A program made the position numbers and the translations under genes. Source: a virus. From it: DNA of 64,000 nucleotides. This document shows, in pieces, positions 531 to 56,319 of the stretch. The DNA lies in the IMG/VR virus record IMGVR_UViG_3300009151_000031; one strand, given 5' to 3'. The notes under the pieces were generated by a model. The model was not told the DNA's origin, ran no database searches, and saw only the letters and a program-made list of their open reading frames with translations. Numbering within the stretch: position 1 is the stretch's first letter; each line of letters begins with the position of its first letter.

Positions 531-1649
531 ATGGCTAAACCATTTGACGTATCAAAATTTCGCAAAAGCATTACAAAAAGTATCGACGGTATTAGCGTCG
601 GCTTTACAGATCCAACTGACTGGATCAGCACAAACAATTACGCATTAAACTATTTGATCAGTGGAGACTTTAACAAAGGTGTTCCGCTAGGTAAAGTTAC
701 CGTGTTTGCTGGAGAATCTGGCGCAGGTAAATCATTTATCTGTTCAGGTAACTTGGTAGCTAACGCACAAAAGCAAGGCATCTATGTTATCCTGGTAGAT
801 AGTGAAAACGCACTTGACGAAAAGTGGCTACACGCATTGAATGTAGACACAAGTGAAGACAAACTTCTCAAACTTAACATGGCCATGATCGACGATGTGG
901 GCAAGATGATCAGTGAGTTTGTTAAAGAATACAAAACACTACCAGAACTAGAACGTCCTAAGGTTTTGTTTGTAGTTGACTCGTTGGGCATGTTGCTAAC
1001 ACCAACAGACGTTAACCAATTTGAAGCAGGAGACATGAAAGGCGATATGGGTCGTAAGCCCAAAGCACTTGCCGCACTAGTTCGTAATTGTGTTAATATG
1101 TTTGGTAGTTTGAATCTAGGCCTAGTATGTACAGCACACACATACGCAAGTCAGGACATGTTTGATCCTGATGACAAGATCAGCGGTGGACAGGGTTTTA
1201 TCTACGCTAGCTCTATCGTTGTGGCAATGCGTAAGTTGAAATTAAAAGAAGATGAAGATGGCAACAAGATCTCAGAAGTTAAAGGTATTCGTGCCGCTTG
1301 TAAGATTATGAAAACACGTTATGCTAAACCTTTTGAATCAGTACAGGTTAAGATTCCGTACGAAGAAGGTATGAATCCCTACTCTGGTCTAGTTGACTTG
1401 TTTGAAGGCAAGGGCTTACTTGCTAAAGAAGGTAACAGTTTGGTATATACATTAGTTGATGGCACTATTATCAAGAAGTTCCGCAAAGCATGGGAACGAA
1501 ATGAAGATGTATGTTTGGATCGTGCCATGGCAGACTTTGTTGCTAATCCACATCACAAGACTGTTGATGTAGAAGAACTCGAAGCAGTAGTAGAAGCTAT
1601 TGTTGAAGAAAAACCAAAGAAGTCTAAAAAAGAGGAAGTAGTTGAGTAA
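531..1649 (+). CDS. uvsX: RecA-like recombinase UvsX
   Basis: Walker A GESGAGKS, VVDSLG Walker B, GG motif ISGGQG, KIMKTR; acidic/basic tail. Confidence 0.9.
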   Translation: MAKPFDVSKFRKSITKSIDGISVGFTDPTDWISTNNYALNYLISGDFNKGVPLGKVTVFAGESGAGKSFICSGNLVANAQKQGIYVILVDSENALDEKWLHALNVDTSEDKLLKLNMAMIDDVGKMISEFVKEYKTLPELERPKVLFVVDSLGMLLTPTDVNQFEAGDMKGDMGRKPKALAALVRNCVNMFGSLNLGLVCTAHTYASQDMFDPDDKISGGQGFIYASSIVVAMRKLKLKEDEDGNKISEVKGIRAACKIMKTRYAKPFESVQVKIPYEEGMNPYSGLVDLFEGKGLLAKEGNSLVYTLVDGTIIKKFRKAWERNEDVCLDRAMADFVANPHHKTVDVEELEAVVEAIVEEKPKKSKKEEVVE

Positions 1650-2265
1650 TATACTCATCATTGGTGATAGCTTTGCCGCAGATTGGTCTACTAAATATAA
1701 AGACTATTTAGGTTGGCCCAGTCTGCTAGCAGAACAGCACACCGTAACTAATCTTGCACAAGCAGGAGTTAGTGAGTATAAAATTTACAAACAATTACTT
1801 TCAGTTAAAGATTTAAGCGTATTTGATGCAGTTATTGTAGCGCACACGAGCCCGTACCGTGTGCCTACTAGACTACACCCTGTACATTTTAATGATGTAT
1901 TGCACAATAAGTCAGATTTAATTTATACAGACATTGAATATCATTCTTTTCAGTTAAAAAATATGTTCAATAGAAGTTTATGTGCGGCAAAGAAGTTTTT
2001 TACATATCATTTTGACGAAGAGTTTTTTGAAGTTAGTTATGGATTATTTAGAGATAAGATAAACACTATATTAGCTGATAAAAAAGTTATCACTCTTGCA
2101 ACGTTTGATACATGGGCGTCAACAGAAAAATATGTACTAGACTTTGTTGATTTGTTAAATACCCAACCGGGATTAATAAATCATTATTCAAAAGAAGGCA
2201 ACCAAACTGTGTGTAACACGGTAATTGCTACACTAAAATTAATATCAAAGGAAACTAAACAATGA
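1642..2265 (+). CDS. SGNH/GDSL-like protein
   Basis: IIGDSF block I, NLAQAGVS block II, C-terminal NHYSKEGN. Confidence 0.55.
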   Translation: MSNILIIGDSFAADWSTKYKDYLGWPSLLAEQHTVTNLAQAGVSEYKIYKQLLSVKDLSVFDAVIVAHTSPYRVPTRLHPVHFNDVLHNKSDLIYTDIEYHSFQLKNMFNRSLCAAKKFFTYHFDEEFFEVSYGLFRDKINTILADKKVITLATFDTWASTEKYVLDFVDLLNTQPGLINHYSKEGNQTVCNTVIATLKLISKETKQ

Positions 2266-2489
2266 GTATGGACGTAGAAGTTTTAATTGAAGCATATACT
2301 ATTTTAAAACAGTATATCCCACAGAAAGATCGTCAAGAAGCCGCAGACAATCTTATGAGCATTATGGTTGACATGTTAAATGATGAAGAGCTTGCTAATT
2401 TTGGCGGAGCAGATAATACACTTAAACGTGCCCTTAAAGAATACTCAGCCGACGATGATGAAGTCGAGGACGAAGAAGGTGATTGGTAA
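2262..2489 (+). CDS. Small acidic hypothetical protein
   Basis: ATGA-overlap chain with neighbours, acidic tail. Confidence 0.7.
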   Translation: MSMDVEVLIEAYTILKQYIPQKDRQEAADNLMSIMVDMLNDEELANFGGADNTLKRALKEYSADDDEVEDEEGDW

Positions 2490-3123
2490 ATCGGGCGTAA
2501 TTGATAATTTCTTTACTGAGCCAGAATTGGACCCAGTGATAAAATACCTGTCGAATTTAAAATCAGCATTTAGTTACGGCAACGGAATTGATGCAACTAA
2601 TAGTCTTTATCCGTGGTTTGTTAAAAAGTGTTTTAACAAGATACAAGAAACATTTGGCAAAGACCTAATACTTAACAGAGTTACGTATTTAAATGATGGA
2701 GTTCCTATTTCATTACATTCAGATTATTACCAAATGGATGGTAAAGGGATACCAAAGTTTGCAATGCTAATCCCAATCTCAGTTAACAATGATAGGTCGT
2801 TTAAAAGCAAAGTTCATACTGTTATTTTTAATGAGGTTGATGAATTTTCTAATAGAACAGACAAATTAACTACACATTGGAATAAAGAAGGTTGGTATAG
2901 TAATAAATCGATTAAAGAAAATAATGCTATGCAATATAAAGATGAACATCTTGGGCATCTTAGCACTGAAGATTTAGAATGTTTGACTGTGCATACTATA
3001 TCGGAATGGAAGTTTGGTAGTTTAATATATTGGGATTCAAGTCTATTACACACAAGCGATAACTTTACAAAAAACAATGTTACATCAAAACAGGCGTTAG
3101 TACTACACACTTATGTTTTATAA
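2479..3123 (+). CDS. 2OG-Fe(II) oxygenase-like protein (likely GTG start at 2479)
   Basis: LHSD (HxD) and distal WDSSLLH; upstream part of track ORF overlaps previous gene. Confidence 0.5.
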   Translation: MIGKSGVIDNFFTEPELDPVIKYLSNLKSAFSYGNGIDATNSLYPWFVKKCFNKIQETFGKDLILNRVTYLNDGVPISLHSDYYQMDGKGIPKFAMLIPISVNNDRSFKSKVHTVIFNEVDEFSNRTDKLTTHWNKEGWYSNKSIKENNAMQYKDEHLGHLSTEDLECLTVHTISEWKFGSLIYWDSSLLHTSDNFTKNNVTSKQALVLHTYVL

Positions 3124-3568
3124 TAAAATCGTTGCCAATCTTGGAGAAATTCCAAACTTCATTGATTACTATGAAGGCGAACTTATTGCGGCTAAAGCCG
3201 ACATTAAAATTCGAGGCAACGTAGAACGAGCATTAAGTAACTTGCCGGGTGAAACAGAACATCGTTTTAATCAATTGCAAGAAATTGAAGCAGTATTAGA
3301 GTTTCTTAATATACAGTTGCGTAAAATACGTCAGTCACACTATAAAAAATATTTAGAAGCCTATGCTCGTGCATTAACAAGCCGAGATGCAGAAAAGTAT
3401 GCAGAAGCCGAAGACGAAGTTATTGATATGGAAACTATTATCAACGAGGTAGCACTACTCCGTAACAAATGGTTAGGAGTAATGAAAGGCATAGAGAGTA
3501 AGAACTTTATGCTAGGGCACGTTGTTCGATTACGAACGGCGGGTATGGAGGATATTGTTGTATCATGA
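3113..3568 (+). CDS. uvsY: Recombination mediator UvsY-like
   Basis: Helical 151 aa, YLEAYARALTSRDAEKYAE, KNFMLGHVVRLRTAGMED, near uvsX. Confidence 0.75.
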   Translation: MFYNKIVANLGEIPNFIDYYEGELIAAKADIKIRGNVERALSNLPGETEHRFNQLQEIEAVLEFLNIQLRKIRQSHYKKYLEAYARALTSRDAEKYAEAEDEVIDMETIINEVALLRNKWLGVMKGIESKNFMLGHVVRLRTAGMEDIVVS

Positions 3569-3819
3569 TAGACTGGAAAGCACGAGCTGATCAACTATTA
3601 GAAGAGTTTAACATGTGCATTAAGGCTAAACCAATGCACAATGTAGTAGATATACAATTAGAAAAAGATACGGTTGCTAAGTTTGCTTATAATTTAAGTA
3701 CACAACGTGGCTGGGGTTCTGATACGGAGATTGCTGAAGCAATTTATCAACTTGAACCAAGACTTGCAGAACTTAAAAAGAAATTAATTATAGAGATACT
3801 ACAACGTGGGCCTGTTTAA
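3565..3819 (+). CDS. Hypothetical protein
   Basis: ATGA overlap, operon continuity. Confidence 0.65.
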   Translation: MIDWKARADQLLEEFNMCIKAKPMHNVVDIQLEKDTVAKFAYNLSTQRGWGSDTEIAEAIYQLEPRLAELKKKLIIEILQRGPV

Positions 3820-4561
3820 AAACTCATACGCTAGCCATGATCATAGTTTAGAATTTTTAAACATGATCTATGGGTATGATACCTTTCTTGACAATTTAGA
3901 AGTCATAGCCGATATGGGCTGTGGCGAAGGTCGAGACGTTGAGTGGTGGGCTACATTAACTACACGTGACGATCCGCCTATTCCGCACAACTATCTAGTA
4001 TATGCTGTAGATAAAGATATTAACCAAATAGAACCAGACATACTAAAAAACAATACTAACGTAAAAGCTATTGAAGGAGACTTTGAAACTCGTGTTGTTC
4101 CTAGGAATGTTGATTTAATTTGGGCACATGATAGTTTCCAGTATGCCCGAGACCCATTTAAGTGTTTGAATACATGGAAAAGTACACTGAATGTTAATGG
4201 TATGTTATTAATGACAATACCACAGACTACTTACTTGTATAATAATCGTCTAATAGTTGCTAACTATAGTCATCAATACTATAACTATAATATATTGAAT
4301 ATGATGTATATGTTGGCCATTAGCGGATTTGATTGTAGAGATGCATATTTTTATCGTAAAGAAAATAGCCCTTGGTTGTATATTGGCGTGTATGCTAGCG
4401 AACACGGACCATTAACTCAAGATGCTACATGGTACGATTTAGCGGATCGCAACTTAATTAACGACAGCGTAATTAATAGCGTAAGTAAATATGGATACGC
4501 TAGATTAGAAGATGTTGTTGTAAGTTGGTTCGATAAAAACTTATATCAAATAACAAATTAA
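3806..4561 (+). CDS. Class I SAM-dependent methyltransferase
   Basis: IADMGCGEG motif I, YAVD, IEGDF, DLIWAHDSFQY. Confidence 0.7.
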   Translation: MGLFKNSYASHDHSLEFLNMIYGYDTFLDNLEVIADMGCGEGRDVEWWATLTTRDDPPIPHNYLVYAVDKDINQIEPDILKNNTNVKAIEGDFETRVVPRNVDLIWAHDSFQYARDPFKCLNTWKSTLNVNGMLLMTIPQTTYLYNNRLIVANYSHQYYNYNILNMMYMLAISGFDCRDAYFYRKENSPWLYIGVYASEHGPLTQDATWYDLADRNLINDSVINSVSKYGYARLEDVVVSWFDKNLYQITN

Positions 4562-4562
4562 A

Positions 4563-5297
4563 ATGAAAATTGTAATAGTAACCGGGGGATTTGATCCCAT
4601 ACACAGTGGACATATTGCTTACCTTAAAGAAGCACGACTCCTAGGCGACATGCTAATAGTAGGACTAAACAGCGATGCGTGGTTGGAACGTAAAAAAGGT
4701 CGTGCGTTTATGCCATTCACGGAACGTGCCTGTATCATTGATAATCTGTCAATGGTTGATTATGTGATTAATTTTTCTGATGACGATAACACCGCAATAG
4801 ATGCAATACGCAAAGTTCAGGCCGAATATCCAGGTGCTACTATCATATTTGCCAACGGTGGTGACCGCACACAAAACAACATTCCTGAAATGTCAGTAGC
4901 AGGAGTAACATTTGCATTTGGTGTTGGGGGAACTAATAAAGCCAACAGTAGTAGTTGGATCCTTGAGGAGTGGAAAGCACCCAAGATCTATCGTCCTTGG
5001 GGGTATTACCGTGTGTTATACGATGTTCCTGGAACGAAAGTTAAGGAGTTAGTAGTCGAGCCGGGTAAACAACTAAGTATGCAACGTCATAAAATGCGAT
5101 CTGAATACTGGAAAGTAGCCGAAGGTATGGCCCGTGTGGTTAACGAAACTGGAACAACCACGTTAGGAATACATGGAAGCTATTTTGTAGCTCGTACTGA
5201 ATGGCATCAACTGACTAATCCGTTCAAAGATCCATTAAAGCTGGTAGAAATACAGTATGGCCCGGACTGTGCTGAAGAAGATATAGAACGCAGATAA
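4563..5297 (+). CDS. Cytidylyltransferase-like domain fused to mannose-6-P isomerase-type cupin
   Basis: GGFDPIHSGH (HxGH), ANGGDR; C-terminal RPWG..LSMQRHKMRSEYW..EIQYG..EEDIER. Confidence 0.8.
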   Translation: MKIVIVTGGFDPIHSGHIAYLKEARLLGDMLIVGLNSDAWLERKKGRAFMPFTERACIIDNLSMVDYVINFSDDDNTAIDAIRKVQAEYPGATIIFANGGDRTQNNIPEMSVAGVTFAFGVGGTNKANSSSWILEEWKAPKIYRPWGYYRVLYDVPGTKVKELVVEPGKQLSMQRHKMRSEYWKVAEGMARVVNETGTTTLGIHGSYFVARTEWHQLTNPFKDPLKLVEIQYGPDCAEEDIERR

Positions 5298-5304
5298 ATA
5301 CTTG

Positions 5305-6876
5305 ATGCGTAATTTAATCGATATCATCACTGAAGCTACTATTGCAGACTATCCAATGGGTACAACGTACCTAATTAGTGGTAGTAAATCTGGTCGTGCA
5401 TTAGCTGATGCATTATCGCATCAAGGCGTTAACATCGAAGAACCAATGGTTAGTGTTGATCAAAGTGAAGTTAACCCCAAAGAAATTAAAGCCTACGTAG
5501 GCAAAAATGCTCCGGGTGTTGCTAGTCAAGCATTCCGTGACGCCGATAACACATTGTGGGTTTACTATGGCGGTGCAAGCGGTATGAACAGTTGTTTTGT
5601 ACACGCAGATAAACTAGCTAACCGTGGCGAGATTGCAGAAGGCATTCTTGGCGCGGCTATGTTTGCCAAGTTTACTAAACGTGCCCCACAAGAAGAAATA
5701 GCACAAGTTACGGTACAAGATGTAGAACGTGTTCTTGCACAGTTGAGTAATAAAGCCGAAGACGTATACTCCGTTACGGTAAATGATGCCGATAATCGGC
5801 ATGCTGACACTATTACATTTGATCTATTCTTAAAAACAAAACCTTTTCAAGACCTAATGGATTTAAAAAAGCGCGAAGCACTTATGCAAGAGTTTAGTAG
5901 TGCCGCCGCCTATGTAAATACTCCCAATGCAGAACGTTACAGCCGTTACTTTTATATCAACGGTAAAACAGACTCGATCGAAATTATTGCCAATGGAGCA
6001 CTTGCTGAAAAATCAAGCAAGGTTGATGTGTTTGTACAAGTTAACGGTAAGCGTTTACGGTTAAACACTAGTCTTAAAGTTGGCGGCATCAAGCAGTTTG
6101 GTCAAGTTGGCGGCAGCGAAATGGCCAGTATGATTAAACTATGGAACTACTTTGGCGTTGATGTAGCACCAATGACTAAAAAGTTTGAAAAACTACGTAA
6201 CAACGATCAGTTTGACGCATTGGAATATATGTATCGCAACATTGCTGATCAGCTAGGTAAAGAACTACGCGGTAACAATGACAGAACTGAAGCATCGTTT
6301 GTAGTAAAAGTTGCTAATGCCGTTTCGTATTTTGCTACATTAGGCGAAAAGAATGTTGAGCTAGTAGACTTTAGCAAGGGTGGCTTCAAGATTTTACGTT
6401 TTAATGATCTAGTACAAAAGTTACATAATGTTGACTTAACAGCAACTTATAAAGAAGCAAAAGGTCGCCCAGAAATTGGTATCCATGATGTCTCAGATCC
6501 AAAACGAGAACTAGTAAGTATTCGTGTTAAAATTGAAAACAAAAAAGAAGGCCCTTATGTTCGTAACATCATCGAAAAAGGTCCGTTGTTAGAAGAATTA
6601 ACTACAGTACAACAAGGATCGTTGGCACACGGCACCGGATCAAAAATATTAGCACGTACACCTGCTCCGGTTAAAACAGCACCAGCATCCACCTCACCAG
6701 TTGCTAAAGTCAATGCACCAGTACAGCAACCAGTGGCCAAAAAACCAACAGGACCAACTCAAGATTATACCCCACCCGGACATCCAGACTATGTTGAGCC
6801 AGACGATGAGCTCAGATATTCTGAATCGGTAAGACCCAAACGCAGTCTGTCTGAAATACGTCGCCAACGCCGTTGA
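5305..6876 (+). CDS. Late/virion-associated protein with Pro-rich tail
   Basis: ATAAATA at 5294-5300 just upstream; N-terminus MRNLIDIITEA; low-complexity Pro/Ala/Thr C-terminus. Confidence 0.5.
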   Translation: MRNLIDIITEATIADYPMGTTYLISGSKSGRALADALSHQGVNIEEPMVSVDQSEVNPKEIKAYVGKNAPGVASQAFRDADNTLWVYYGGASGMNSCFVHADKLANRGEIAEGILGAAMFAKFTKRAPQEEIAQVTVQDVERVLAQLSNKAEDVYSVTVNDADNRHADTITFDLFLKTKPFQDLMDLKKREALMQEFSSAAAYVNTPNAERYSRYFYINGKTDSIEIIANGALAEKSSKVDVFVQVNGKRLRLNTSLKVGGIKQFGQVGGSEMASMIKLWNYFGVDVAPMTKKFEKLRNNDQFDALEYMYRNIADQLGKELRGNNDRTEASFVVKVANAVSYFATLGEKNVELVDFSKGGFKILRFNDLVQKLHNVDLTATYKEAKGRPEIGIHDVSDPKRELVSIRVKIENKKEGPYVRNIIEKGPLLEELTTVQQGSLAHGTGSKILARTPAPVKTAPASTSPVAKVNAPVQQPVAKKPTGPTQDYTPPGHPDYVEPDDELRYSESVRPKRSLSEIRRQRR

Positions 6877-6901
6877 CCTTTAAATAGCAATAATATATAA
6901 T
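6873..6901 (+). promoter_or_regulatory. sigma70 promoter for tRNA island
   Basis: TTGACC-17 nt-TATAAT, 12 nt before tRNA-Ile2. Confidence 0.8.
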
Positions 6902-6913
6902 ACATGCTTAGTT

Positions 6914-6988
6914 GGGCCAATAGCTTAATGGTAAAGCAATCGACTCATAATCGATTGAGTCTTGGTTCAATTCCAAGTTGGCCCACCA
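6914..6988 (+). tRNA. trnI: tRNA-Ile2(CAT) (lysidine type; Met not excluded)
   Basis: Cloverleaf, ATCGA-CTCATAA-TCGAT, GG start, A73, CCA. Confidence 0.8.
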
Positions 6989-7012
6989 GAATTAGTTGAT
7001 AAGTAGTACATT

Positions 7013-7097
7013 GCCCCGATGGTGGAATTGGTAGACACGCTGGTCTTAGAAGCCAGTGCCGAAAGGTGTGCGAGTTCGAGTCTCGCTTGGGGCACCA
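7013..7097 (+). tRNA. trnL: tRNA-Leu(TAG)
   Basis: CTGGT-CTTAGAA-GCCAG, long variable arm, CCA. Confidence 0.95.
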
Positions 7098-7113
7098 GAT
7101 TTAAGGAAGTAAG

Positions 7114-7320
7114 ATGAACATGGATCAAGCCGCAGTATTTTTAGCGGCAAGTATTTTAACAGCCTTAGGGTTTATTGTGTTTGTTATTGGCGCAGTTGTA
7201 GTAAACAATATTCTTCACCAATTTTGGAAGCCAATTAAATGGTCAAACTATTTAGAGTTTCCGCCAAACTTTATAGCCGAAGAAGATCTTAAAAAAGATA
7301 AAGAGCCTAAATTTAAGTAA
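7114..7320 (+). CDS. Small single-pass membrane protein
   Basis: RBS AAGGAAG; hydrophobic AAVFLAASILTALGFIVFVIGAVVV. Confidence 0.7.
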   Translation: MNMDQAAVFLAASILTALGFIVFVIGAVVVNNILHQFWKPIKWSNYLEFPPNFIAEEDLKKDKEPKFK

Positions 7321-7325
7321 AATCT

Positions 7326-7478
7326 GCGACTGTGGTGAAATAATGCCCGGGTGATGAAATGGTATACATAGAAGACTTAAAATCTTCCGTCTGTAATGGG
7401 CATGCCGGTTCGAGTCCGGCTCCGGGCACCAAGTTAGTTTGCGATGGTATGCCGGTTCGATTCCGGCCAGTCGCACCA
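7326..7478 (+). pseudogene. Split tRNA-Leu-like shell enclosing tRNA-Leu(TAA)
   Basis: 5' GCGACTG-TG-GTGAAAT at 7326 pairs with CAGTCGC-A-CCA at 7468-7478, with its own T arm GCCGG-TTCGATT-CCGGC. Confidence 0.75.
7345..7431 (+). tRNA. trnL: tRNA-Leu(TAA), long variable arm
   Basis: GAAGA-CTTAAAA-TCTTC, acceptor GCCCGGG/TCCGGGC, CCA. Confidence 0.93.
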
Positions 7479-7541
7479 ATTAATCTAGCCCAAACGGGCT
7501 AAAATGATAAATAAAAGTAAGAACTTCAGGAGATTTCCCAC

Positions 7542-8513
7542 ATGAATCAACCACGTAAAATCCGTTGGCTATTAGAACACGAACCAGTTGAGCTTTTCTT
7601 ACGCACAGCTAAAGAGTTTGACAAGCGTATTCGCGCTCTAACAAACGACGAAATCCAAGTAGAAATGTATAAAAAAGAAGAATACCAAGCTAAATTTGGT
7701 GTTGCTAAAGAAATGATGGATTCAGTAGGCCTAATGCACTCTGGCGATATTGAAATGACTCAAACACAAATCGGCAACGTTGGTCAGTGGTACTGCCCAG
7801 ATTTCTTTGCATTAGAAATGCCATTCTTGTTTGATAGCCATGAACACGCTACTCGTGTTCTTGATGGCCAAATTGGTGAACGCCTATTAGACACCATTGA
7901 GCAAAATGCAAGTGCCAAAGGTTTAGCATTTACATACTCAGGTGGTTATCGTGTGTTTGCATCCAATGACAAACTAACAACAGCCGAAGACTTAAAAGGT
8001 CTAAATTGTTTGACTGACATCAGTGCAGTTCGTATTGATACAGCCAAAGCATTTGGTTTAAATGTAGTTCCATTCAAAGATGCCACCTTAGAAGGCGGTC
8101 AAATTGAGATTCTAAATGATCGTTACGAAGCAAGCCAAACACGTGAAACAACATTGCCACGTTATGAAGCCGAAGCGTACCATGCAGGTCATCACCACAT
8201 TGGTGTTACTAACCACAGCATGTACTTGACTACTATTCTAGTTAACAAAGAGTTCTTTGCAAGTTTAACAGCGGACCAACAGGTCGCAATGAAACAAGTT
8301 GCTATGGAAGTTGCCAAGTTAGAGCGTGAATGGTCGGTGACTGATGCAGACACATTGGCTAACAACACAGTTAAACACGCTGAAATGGGTATTACCTATA
8401 CAGAGTTTGCTGATAGCGAAGTGGCCAAATTGAAACAAGCAGTTGAGCCATTGTACGAAAAATATCGTGCGATTTTTAGCCCATTGCTGATTGATAACAT
8501 TCGCTCTGCCTAA
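7542..8513 (+). CDS. TRAP/DctP-family solute-binding protein paralog 1, no signal peptide
   Basis: F..R..T..EIQVE, ALEMPFLFDS.EHA.RVLDG, YSGGYRV, DLKGL, LTTILVNKEFFASLTADQQ. Confidence 0.8.
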   Translation: MNQPRKIRWLLEHEPVELFLRTAKEFDKRIRALTNDEIQVEMYKKEEYQAKFGVAKEMMDSVGLMHSGDIEMTQTQIGNVGQWYCPDFFALEMPFLFDSHEHATRVLDGQIGERLLDTIEQNASAKGLAFTYSGGYRVFASNDKLTTAEDLKGLNCLTDISAVRIDTAKAFGLNVVPFKDATLEGGQIEILNDRYEASQTRETTLPRYEAEAYHAGHHHIGVTNHSMYLTTILVNKEFFASLTADQQVAMKQVAMEVAKLEREWSVTDADTLANNTVKHAEMGITYTEFADSEVAKLKQAVEPLYEKYRAIFSPLLIDNIRSA

Positions 8514-15328: not shown

Positions 15329-15406
15329 ACCCCTGTAGGCAAATTGGTAAAGCCAACTCTCTTAAAAGGAGTAGTCTTCCCTGTTCGAATCAGGGCAGGG
15401 GTACCA
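15329..15406 (+). tRNA. tRNA with TAA anticodon and short variable region (atypical Leu?)
   Basis: ACTCT-CTTAAAA-GGAGT, 6-nt variable region AGTCTT, acceptor ACCCCTG/CAGGGGT, A73, CCA. Confidence 0.75.
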
Positions 15407-55609: not shown

Positions 55610-56319
55610 TGCTTATACAAAAATACAATTATGAACCCATTAATAGAGAAACGATTGATGGGAAGAGACACTATTGTCTTCCAGATGGTAGCAAAGTTCC
55701 TAGTGTTACAACAATCCTAGATAAAACTAAAAGTAAAGAATCTCGAGATGCATTAGCACAATGGCGCAAGAATGTTGGCGAAGTGCGAGCCCAACAGATT
55801 ACTACGGAAGCCGCTAACCGCGGAACACGTATGCACAGCTATCTAGAGCACTATGTTCTAACCGGCGAAATGAAAGAACTCCCAGGTAATCCCTTTGCAC
55901 AGCCAAGTTGGTTTATGGCCGCCCAAGTAATTCTAGAAGGATTCCAGAAAGTAAACGAAGTATGGGGAGTTGAAGTTCCTGTTTACTATAGTGGTTTATA
56001 TGCTGGCACTACAGATAGCGTAGGCGTACACGATAGCGAAGCATGTATAATGGATTACAAGCAAACTAATAAACTTAAAAAACGTGAGTATATTGGTGAC
56101 TATTTTATACAGTTGGCGGCCTATGCACAGGCACACAATAGTATGCACGGAACAGACATCAAAAAAGGTGTAATTCTTATGTGCCAACAGCCAAAAGAGC
56201 TCAGTCCTGGCGTTTTTGACACCCCTGTTTATCAAGAGTTTATTCTTGAAGGACACGAGTTTGAGCACTATTGCACCCAATGGAATAAACGAGTAGAACA
56301 GTACTATCAAACTTCATAA
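55609..56319 (+). CDS. PD-(D/E)XK exonuclease
   Basis: PSVTTIL, RGTRMH, YAGTTD, MDYKQT, QLAAY. Confidence 0.85.
   Translation: MLIQKYNYEPINRETIDGKRHYCLPDGSKVPSVTTILDKTKSKESRDALAQWRKNVGEVRAQQITTEAANRGTRMHSYLEHYVLTGEMKELPGNPFAQPSWFMAAQVILEGFQKVNEVWGVEVPVYYSGLYAGTTDSVGVHDSEACIMDYKQTNKLKKREYIGDYFIQLAAYAQAHNSMHGTDIKKGVILMCQQPKELSPGVFDTPVYQEFILEGHEFEHYCTQWNKRVEQYYQTS

Follow-up and report, generated by a model that had tools for sequence, protein, structure and literature searches.

Here we describe a tRNA gene that sits inside the remains of another tRNA gene in a viral genome, together with a comparative analysis of how it may have come to be there. Within the 64,000 nucleotides that were analysed (hereafter the window), positions 7326–7478 hold an intact tRNA-Leu(UAA) gene, the cargo, between two end pieces of a second tRNA-Leu(UAA) gene, the shell. 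Judged by comparison with other phage sequences, this scar is probably the endonuclease-less remnant of a homing cassette that carries a tRNA-Leu(UAA) of its own, and the cassette would have been the agent of the replacement. We also lean, with less assurance, towards a broader reading, in which a small HNH endonuclease settles in an RNA gene, with no intron around it, by bringing along a complete, cut-resistant spare tRNA-Leu(UAA), and so would act as a natural cleave-and-rescue drive among unrelated freshwater phages, its victims becoming the shell and sometimes the next cargo; the window would then represent an end state. The sequence-only reading of this DNA had named gene replacement as the cause, and that part stands; a homing-endonuclease cassette carrying the inner tRNA was absent from its account.

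The nest and the gene it replaced

The window, a phage-type record, contains 27 tRNA genes, and every element of the nest lies on the plus strand. The 5′ relic of the resident tRNA-Leu(UAA) (7326–7341, 16 nt) consists of the acceptor strand GCGACTG (7326–7332), the linker TG (7333–7334) and the start of the D arm, GTGAAAT (7335–7341). It is followed by the left joint AAT (7342–7344), of which A7342 matches the allele of the related locus L060 (GAAATA), and then by the cargo (7345–7431), an 87-nt class II tRNA-Leu(UAA) with an encoded CCA. The cargo is called tRNA-Leu(taa) by ARAGORN, matches Rfam RF00005 with 52.5 bits (gathering threshold 29) over model positions 1–71, and forms a complete cloverleaf of acceptor, D, anticodon and T arms. 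Next comes an 18-nt spacer, AGTTAGTTTGCGATGGTA (7432–7449), which we assign to the right end of the cassette, and finally the 29-nt 3′ relic of the resident gene (7450–7478), made up of a first T (7450), the T arm GCCGG/TTCGATT/CCGGC (7451–7467), the acceptor strand CAGTCGC (7468–7474), A73 (7475) and CCA (7476–7478). The outer acceptor strands GCGACTG and CAGTCGC pair at seven of seven positions. This layout had been described from the letters beforehand, and both the letters and ARAGORN agree with it exactly. The outer pieces lack the remainder of the D arm (its 3′ half), the anticodon arm and most of the variable arm, and they do not jointly encode a whole tRNA, as the pieces of a split or permuted tRNA do. 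For the outer gene there was no ARAGORN call and no Rfam tRNA match, the inner gene being the only one called. The outer gene is not a tRNA, and the 153-nt structure should best be annotated as one tRNA gene and two pseudogene fragments.

Upstream, a sigma-70-like promoter (TTGACC-17-TATAAT, 6873–6901, plus strand; 11 of 12 positions, as a consensus match only) stands directly before a tRNA-Met gene at 6914, and is followed by that tRNA-Met, a tRNA-Leu(UAG), a 68-aa ORF and then the nest, which suggests that the region may be transcribed as a unit. The ORFs beside the nest encode the 68-aa membrane-like protein and a DctP-like protein.

What stood here before can be read from the closest relatives of the window. 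L058 is 95.6% identical to window positions 648–8309 over 7.6 kb, and L060 is 82–99% identical over approximately 13 kb. Both have the gene order tRNA-Met, tRNA-Leu(UAG), 68-aa ORF, tRNA-Leu(UAA), and in both the last of these is an uninterrupted gene of 85–86 nt exactly at the position of the window's shell; in L058 it measures 85 nt and is flanked, as the nest is, by the 68-aa ORF on one side and the DctP-like gene on the other. The 5′ relic is identical at 16 of 16 positions to the first 16 nt of this gene in both relatives, and the 3′ relic at 29 of 29 positions to its 3′ end in L060, and because of these two identities the shell cannot be put down to chance; the Leu-like character that had been claimed for the outer tRNA is thereby borne out, since its halves are those of an intact tRNA-Leu(UAA). 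With the empty site intact in L058 and L060, it follows that about 40 nt of the resident gene (the D-arm remainder, the anticodon arm and most of the variable arm) were replaced by 108 nt, namely the AAT joint, the foreign tRNA and the spacer. The replacement dates from after the split between the window lineage and L058. Presence and absence at one site in close relatives, as expected of a homing element, is thus found here, and we regard the shell as almost certainly a fossil of gene replacement.

The resident gene belongs to a widespread phage tRNA-Leu(UAA) family opened by the 16-mer GCGACTGTGGTGAAAT and intact in roughly 90 of 120 fetched IMG/VR loci; an intact member is about 85 nt long, starts GCGACTG TG GTGAAAT.GGTAGACAC and ends ...GGTTCGATTC.GG. 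CAGTCGC ACCA. Among INPHARED phages, blastn of positions 6900–7700 and tblastn of the DctP-like protein returned no close relative of the window, the matches being to generic tRNA-Leu only (phiKZ, for example, at 81%). Nests without an endonuclease gene are rare. When 1669 tRNAs in 177 sequences were screened for a 7-mer upstream whose complement followed by NCCA occurs downstream, relics with tRNA features were found only at the window and at the locus L132; three further matches all lacked tRNA features.

An identical cargo tRNA behind an endonuclease gene

A link to a mobile element comes from a contig that is otherwise unrelated to the window. Positions 7345–7466 (inner tRNA, spacer and T arm; 122 nt) are 98.4% identical by BLAST to a segment of L137, and outside this segment the two share one weak 66% stretch, the remaining 6.3 kb of L137 being dissimilar. 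L137 and L139 are metagenome contigs, recovered with the right joint of the window as query, identical to each other and otherwise unrelated to the window, in which a tRNA identical to the inner tRNA at 87 of 87 positions stands behind an HNH-type endonuclease gene; the spacer that follows has two differences, and the T arm agrees as far as CCGG. The same element is therefore present in otherwise unrelated genomes, as homing elements are, and the insert is mobile. The spacer of a further locus, L146, AGTATTTTGCGA, is related to that of the window. A total of 14 IMG/VR contigs carry the inner tRNA family (GCCCGGG...), recognised by its shared 5′ 25-mer. In L123, L125, L133 and L134 the tRNA is a normal part of the array and has no shell; in L132 it is nested again, within a different shell (GCGAGTA...TACTCGC ACCA); and in the seven contigs of the L126 group it comes straight after a small ORF and has a 3′ tRNA relic behind it. 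A gapped pattern of cargo end and nearby T arm, searched in IMG/VR, recovered the L126 group and L132 only. IMG/VR matches to a 17-mer across the right joint (L140–L142) were chance matches inside coding sequence.

In L137 the cassette can be followed from end to end. After a tRNA-Met come the 5′ shell GTCCGCG TG GTGGAATAGGTAGACAC, a leader of 50 nt that contains TATAAATA and a ribosome-binding site, an ORF of 143 aa, 9 nt, and the cargo tRNA; then follow the spacer, the T arm and CGCGGAC ACCA, of which CGCGGAC pairs with the 5′ shell at seven of seven positions. The 143-aa protein matches the PHROG families phrog_1872 ('endonuclease', E 4e-7) and phrog_6254 ('HNH endonuclease', E 4e-6). Its motif CHACNN-KCSNP-HLYWGT aligns weakly with the His-Me finger of I-PpoI (PDB, E 0.2), the only Pfam match of the cassette protein is zf-His_Me_endon at E 0.029, below the cut-off, and its tail is one that we take, by eye, to be NUMOD3-like. 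The endonuclease ORF is present in the cassettes of L137, L139, L146 and L160, and its product in L146 measures 141 aa. The leader that separates the start codon of this ORF from the 5′ relic (L137 3047–3095) is conserved also in L143–L150 and L160. It holds AGGAG and GTTTAGTATAAATA, within which TATAAATA resembles a T4-type late promoter, and these features suggest that the cassette may carry its own expression signals. In L126 (7175–7639), L147 and L151 the endonuclease ORF runs into the cargo tRNA and has its stop codon within the first bases of the tRNA. The sequence TGGCGCAAGATAG before the L126 cargo was considered as a decayed 5′ relic through which the endonuclease ORF reads, and was rejected as such, since the coding sequences of L126, L147 and L151 all conserve the tail NRKGGKPKGW(R/K)K.

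A protein search of IMG/VR with the L137 endonuclease gave 33 loci. Wherever identity to the L137 protein is 58% or more, a complete tRNA-Leu(UAA) follows the gene at a distance of no more than about 50 nt; at L165, whose protein is 46% identical, a tRNA-Leu(UAG) takes its place, and the more distant or partial matches L166–L168 have no tRNA-Leu at the locus. The endonuclease is usually preceded by a tRNA-Leu 5′ relic ending ...GGTAGACAC; a full 5′ relic, ending ...GGTA(G/A)ACAC, is found at 12 loci (the metagenome contigs L137 and L139 counted) and comes in five acceptor types. A 3′ relic complementary to it at seven of seven positions is kept in L137/L139, L146 and L160, and is reduced or gone in L143, L145, L147, L148 and L151; in the L126 group it is the 5′ relic that is absent.

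These loci bear directly on a second proposal of the sequence-only reading, namely that the shell is maintained as a second RNase P/CCA substrate or as a decoy. We considered it in a wider form, in which the outer ends and T arm would be selected as a second substrate for RNase P and the CCA enzyme, as a processing scaffold for the inner tRNA or as a decoy for a host nuclease. The minimum-energy fold computed for the 153-nt RNA (−56.3 kcal/mol, z −2.6) does close the outer stem with its seven pairs, but it lacks the inner cloverleaf and says little either way; both relic pieces are unmutated relative to L060, and the promoter-like site upstream suggests co-transcription. However, 45 unmutated bases are what a recent event at about 4% divergence would leave, and the closest relatives carry an ordinary tRNA and no shell. 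RNase P cleavage at G7345, as general tRNA processing entails, would also place the two halves on different RNAs. Elsewhere the halves are about 500 nt apart with the endonuclease gene between them (L137, L146, L160), and, as listed above, at least five other lineages have lost all or part of the 3′ half, while the L126 group lacks the 5′ half. A maintained shell is accordingly very improbable, and of the two proposals only the fossil survives; the two shell pieces are expected to have no role of their own, and the 87-nt tRNA is expected to be the only mature product.

The same tRNA types appear on both sides of the arrangement. The shell of L146 is of the window type (GCGACTG...CAGTCGC ACCA) and surrounds a different cargo, of the GCTCCGA type; the GCTCCGA type is the shell in L143, L145, L148 and L160, two of which, L145 and L160, carry the GCGACTG type as their cargo, from which it follows that victim and cargo swap roles. 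A shell consensus, GGTGAAATAGGTAGACAC, is exact in six of eight shell contexts, with L137 and L148 one base off, and occurs in none of nine distinct cargo alleles, which fits a cargo that would not be a target.

Further tRNAs may be placed beside these. The tRNA-Leu(UAG) of the window (7013–7097, plus strand) has a D arm, TGGTGGAATTGGTAGACAC, nearly identical to the shell consensus, and L165 carries a GGTAGACAC relic upstream of its endonuclease relative as well as the tRNA-Leu(UAG) after it; sister enzymes may therefore target tRNA-Leu(UAG) too. The window also holds a second tRNA with a UAA anticodon (15329–15406, plus strand; 78 nt), whose short variable region gives it a class I build, unlike the long-armed tRNA-Leu, and in L151/L152 and L162, too, the cargo that follows the endonuclease gene is a short UAA tRNA, of 77 nt.

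The joints and the missing endonuclease gene

Cassette (L137) and resident allele (L060) have the 17 nt at 7450–7466 in common, and BLAST identity with L137 stops at 7466; since the stretch is shared, the right recombination joint is placed within it. On the left side, identity with the resident allele extends through GAAATA (7337–7342). In L146 the last letters of the endonuclease gene, ...GAGAAATAAT, abut the cargo, and a deletion between the two GAAATA copies there reproduces the 19-nt left joint of the window exactly, giving GCGACTGTGGTGAAATAAT and then the cargo. L132 shares its cargo allele and right joint with the L126 type but lacks the endonuclease gene. The L126-type gene ends GATAGATCAAAC, and its deletion through TAGA would leave precisely the left joint that L132 shows, GGTAGA|TCAAAC; L132 thus appears to be an independent case in which the endonuclease was lost in parallel.

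With three family members as tblastn queries against the window, neither an endonuclease gene nor a remnant of one was found in or near the nest, and the cargo is separated from the 5′ relic by just 3 nt; the ORF that a homing cassette contains is missing from this copy, and we therefore infer the involvement of an endonuclease here from the cassette's relatives. A weak tblastn match at 56152–56304 lies inside an unrelated 236-aa ORF and was set aside. The tail GAGAAATAAT occurs only with a different cargo (L146), and the copy with the identical cargo, L137, has the spacer ACAGATTTA. Searches for a donor that combines the GCCCGGG cargo with the endonuclease tail GAAATAAT found none, and for this reason the step in which the endonuclease gene was lost is likewise one that we infer.

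Could the nest be a product of assembly, that is, a chimeric join of two strain variants with different tRNA-Leu genes? The record is a metagenome-type assembly, and the exact left joint is found in no other contig: an exact search of metagenome_contigs did not return it, and searches of IMG/VR and metagenome contigs gave no second genome with the window's exact nest. The joints, however, share no long repeat for an assembler to cross (6 nt on the left, 17 nt on the right), and equivalent nests occur in independent assemblies from different samples (L137, which equals L139, and the same design in L132, L146 and L160). We consider an artefact highly unlikely.

The absence of the gene also speaks for a plainer history, in which an unrelated tRNA-Leu replaced the core of the resident gene by illegitimate or short-homology recombination within phage tRNA arrays, and the link to an endonuclease elsewhere is incidental. 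The members of the inner tRNA family that stand free of any shell in L123, L125, L133 and L134 agree with this account, as do the D-loop, anticodon-loop and T-arm sequences that inner and outer tRNAs share and that could support recombination. It accounts poorly for L137/L139, where an endonuclease gene precedes the identical tRNA and both the right spacer and the position of the joint agree with those of the window. Nor does it account well for the recurrence of nests in five shell acceptor types whose left boundary stays constant and whose companion is in every case this endonuclease family; endonuclease-less nests, moreover, are only 2 among the 1669 tRNAs screened. Replacement in which no endonuclease took part is therefore unlikely, though less so than either a maintained shell or a faulty assembly, and descent from a homing cassette is the reading that we prefer.

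In the course of events that we propose for the cassette, a mixed infection would bring the two alleles together, and the endonuclease would cut the resident tRNA-Leu(UAA) near the boundary between the D arm and the anticodon stem. The break would then be repaired by copying the donor cassette, with the conserved D-arm and T-arm sequences serving as short homology arms; these arms would be only about 17–26 nt, which counts against this step. Because the spare tRNA-Leu(UAA) of the cassette differs from the target in the D arm and the anticodon stem, decoding of UUA and UUG would be kept and the new locus would be uncuttable. In the window lineage the endonuclease gene would have been left out of the copying or deleted later. 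Loss after homing could have run through recombination between GAAATA in the relic D-loop and GAAATA at the end of the endonuclease gene, leaving a nest with the tRNA only; alternatively, a repair crossover at the inner repeat would mean that the gene was never copied at all. Once formed, an endonuclease-less nest could persist as an immune allele, with no target site left and no nuclease to pay for.

Known systems and wider meaning

The closest described system is SegB of phage T4, a free-standing GIY-YIG homing endonuclease in the phage tRNA gene cluster (PMC2330249; also PMC13096335). SegB cuts within tRNA genes of related phages that lack it, and it is inherited with its neighbouring tRNA genes while the tRNA markers of the recipient are lost (PMC2330249). 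SegB and the cassette have in common an endonuclease gene within a phage tRNA region. They differ in that SegB lies between intact tRNA genes and recognises a conserved T-arm motif of many tRNAs, whereas the cassette lies inside one specific tRNA gene, which it destroys, and brings one dedicated replacement with the same anticodon; the cassette enzyme, too, appears to be of the HNH/His-Me type rather than GIY-YIG, and the window copy has no endonuclease gene.

Other mobile elements enter tRNA genes by different routes. In cyanobacteria and plastids, group I introns occupy the anticodon loop of tRNA-Leu(UAA), and they share with the nest the target gene, the mid-gene insertion and an outcome in which decoding is left intact. 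With an intron, however, RNA splicing restores the gene and the exons are functional, whereas in the nest the outer anticodon arm is deleted and a second complete gene restores the function. No Intron_gpI match was found at 6800–7800 with Rfam, even at E values up to 10, so that the ribozyme core of such an intron is missing from the nest. A GCGACTG-type tRNA-Leu(UAA) with a group I intron in its anticodon loop does occur in L018 (6414–6700, plus strand; Rfam RF00028, 57.5 bits, 6439–6638), and L009, L022, L053 and L065 likewise have a group I intron in a GCGACTG-type tRNA-Leu(UAA), as judged only by shared sequence after GACTT. This tRNA-Leu(UAA) family is thus a repeated target of mobile DNA, for which there are two solutions, splicing or a spare gene.

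Islands and prophages that integrate into tRNA genes by an integrase duplicate the 3′ end of the tRNA at attL and attR. Like the nest, they place a mobile element in a tRNA gene, bring a replacement part and leave a duplicated tRNA fragment behind; in their case, however, only the 3′ part is duplicated, the 5′ part of the host gene stays in use and an integrase is encoded, whereas in the nest 5′ and 3′ relics flank a whole foreign tRNA. No integrase gene is present among the ORFs around the nest, and the 5′ relic is itself at odds with insertion of that kind. Engineered cleave-and-rescue or home-and-rescue drives use a nuclease to destroy a useful gene where it resides, and make good the loss with a recoded copy of their own that cannot be cut. 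The logic of the cassette would be the same, with the difference that those drives are synthetic CRISPR constructs in insects and the cassette is a natural phage element whose cutting is deduced. A literature search, of incomplete coverage and so no proof of novelty, found no description of an endonuclease with a spare tRNA nested in a tRNA gene, and a homing element of this design is apparently of an undescribed kind.

Homing endonucleases are thought to persist in essential or useful genes within introns or inteins, or beside their target. If the proposed history is true, overwriting a tRNA gene and bringing a replacement with the same anticodon would be a third way for them to survive, there would be an explanation for the odd pieces of tRNA and the duplicate tRNA-Leu genes that phage tRNA arrays contain, and avoidance of a nuclease, besides codon use, could shape the tRNA alleles of phages. 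To such an account the window would contribute a clean comparison of empty and filled site, a near-identical cassette in an unrelated phage, and a stage at which the endonuclease has been lost.

A separate difference lies next to the resident gene in one of the relatives. On the same contig as L060, about 2.9 kb (L121 91–3000) stand between the tRNA-Leu(UAA) and the DctP-like gene and are absent in the window and in L058; they hold three ORFs, of 383 aa (minus strand), 254 aa (short-chain dehydrogenase-like by eye) and 313 aa.
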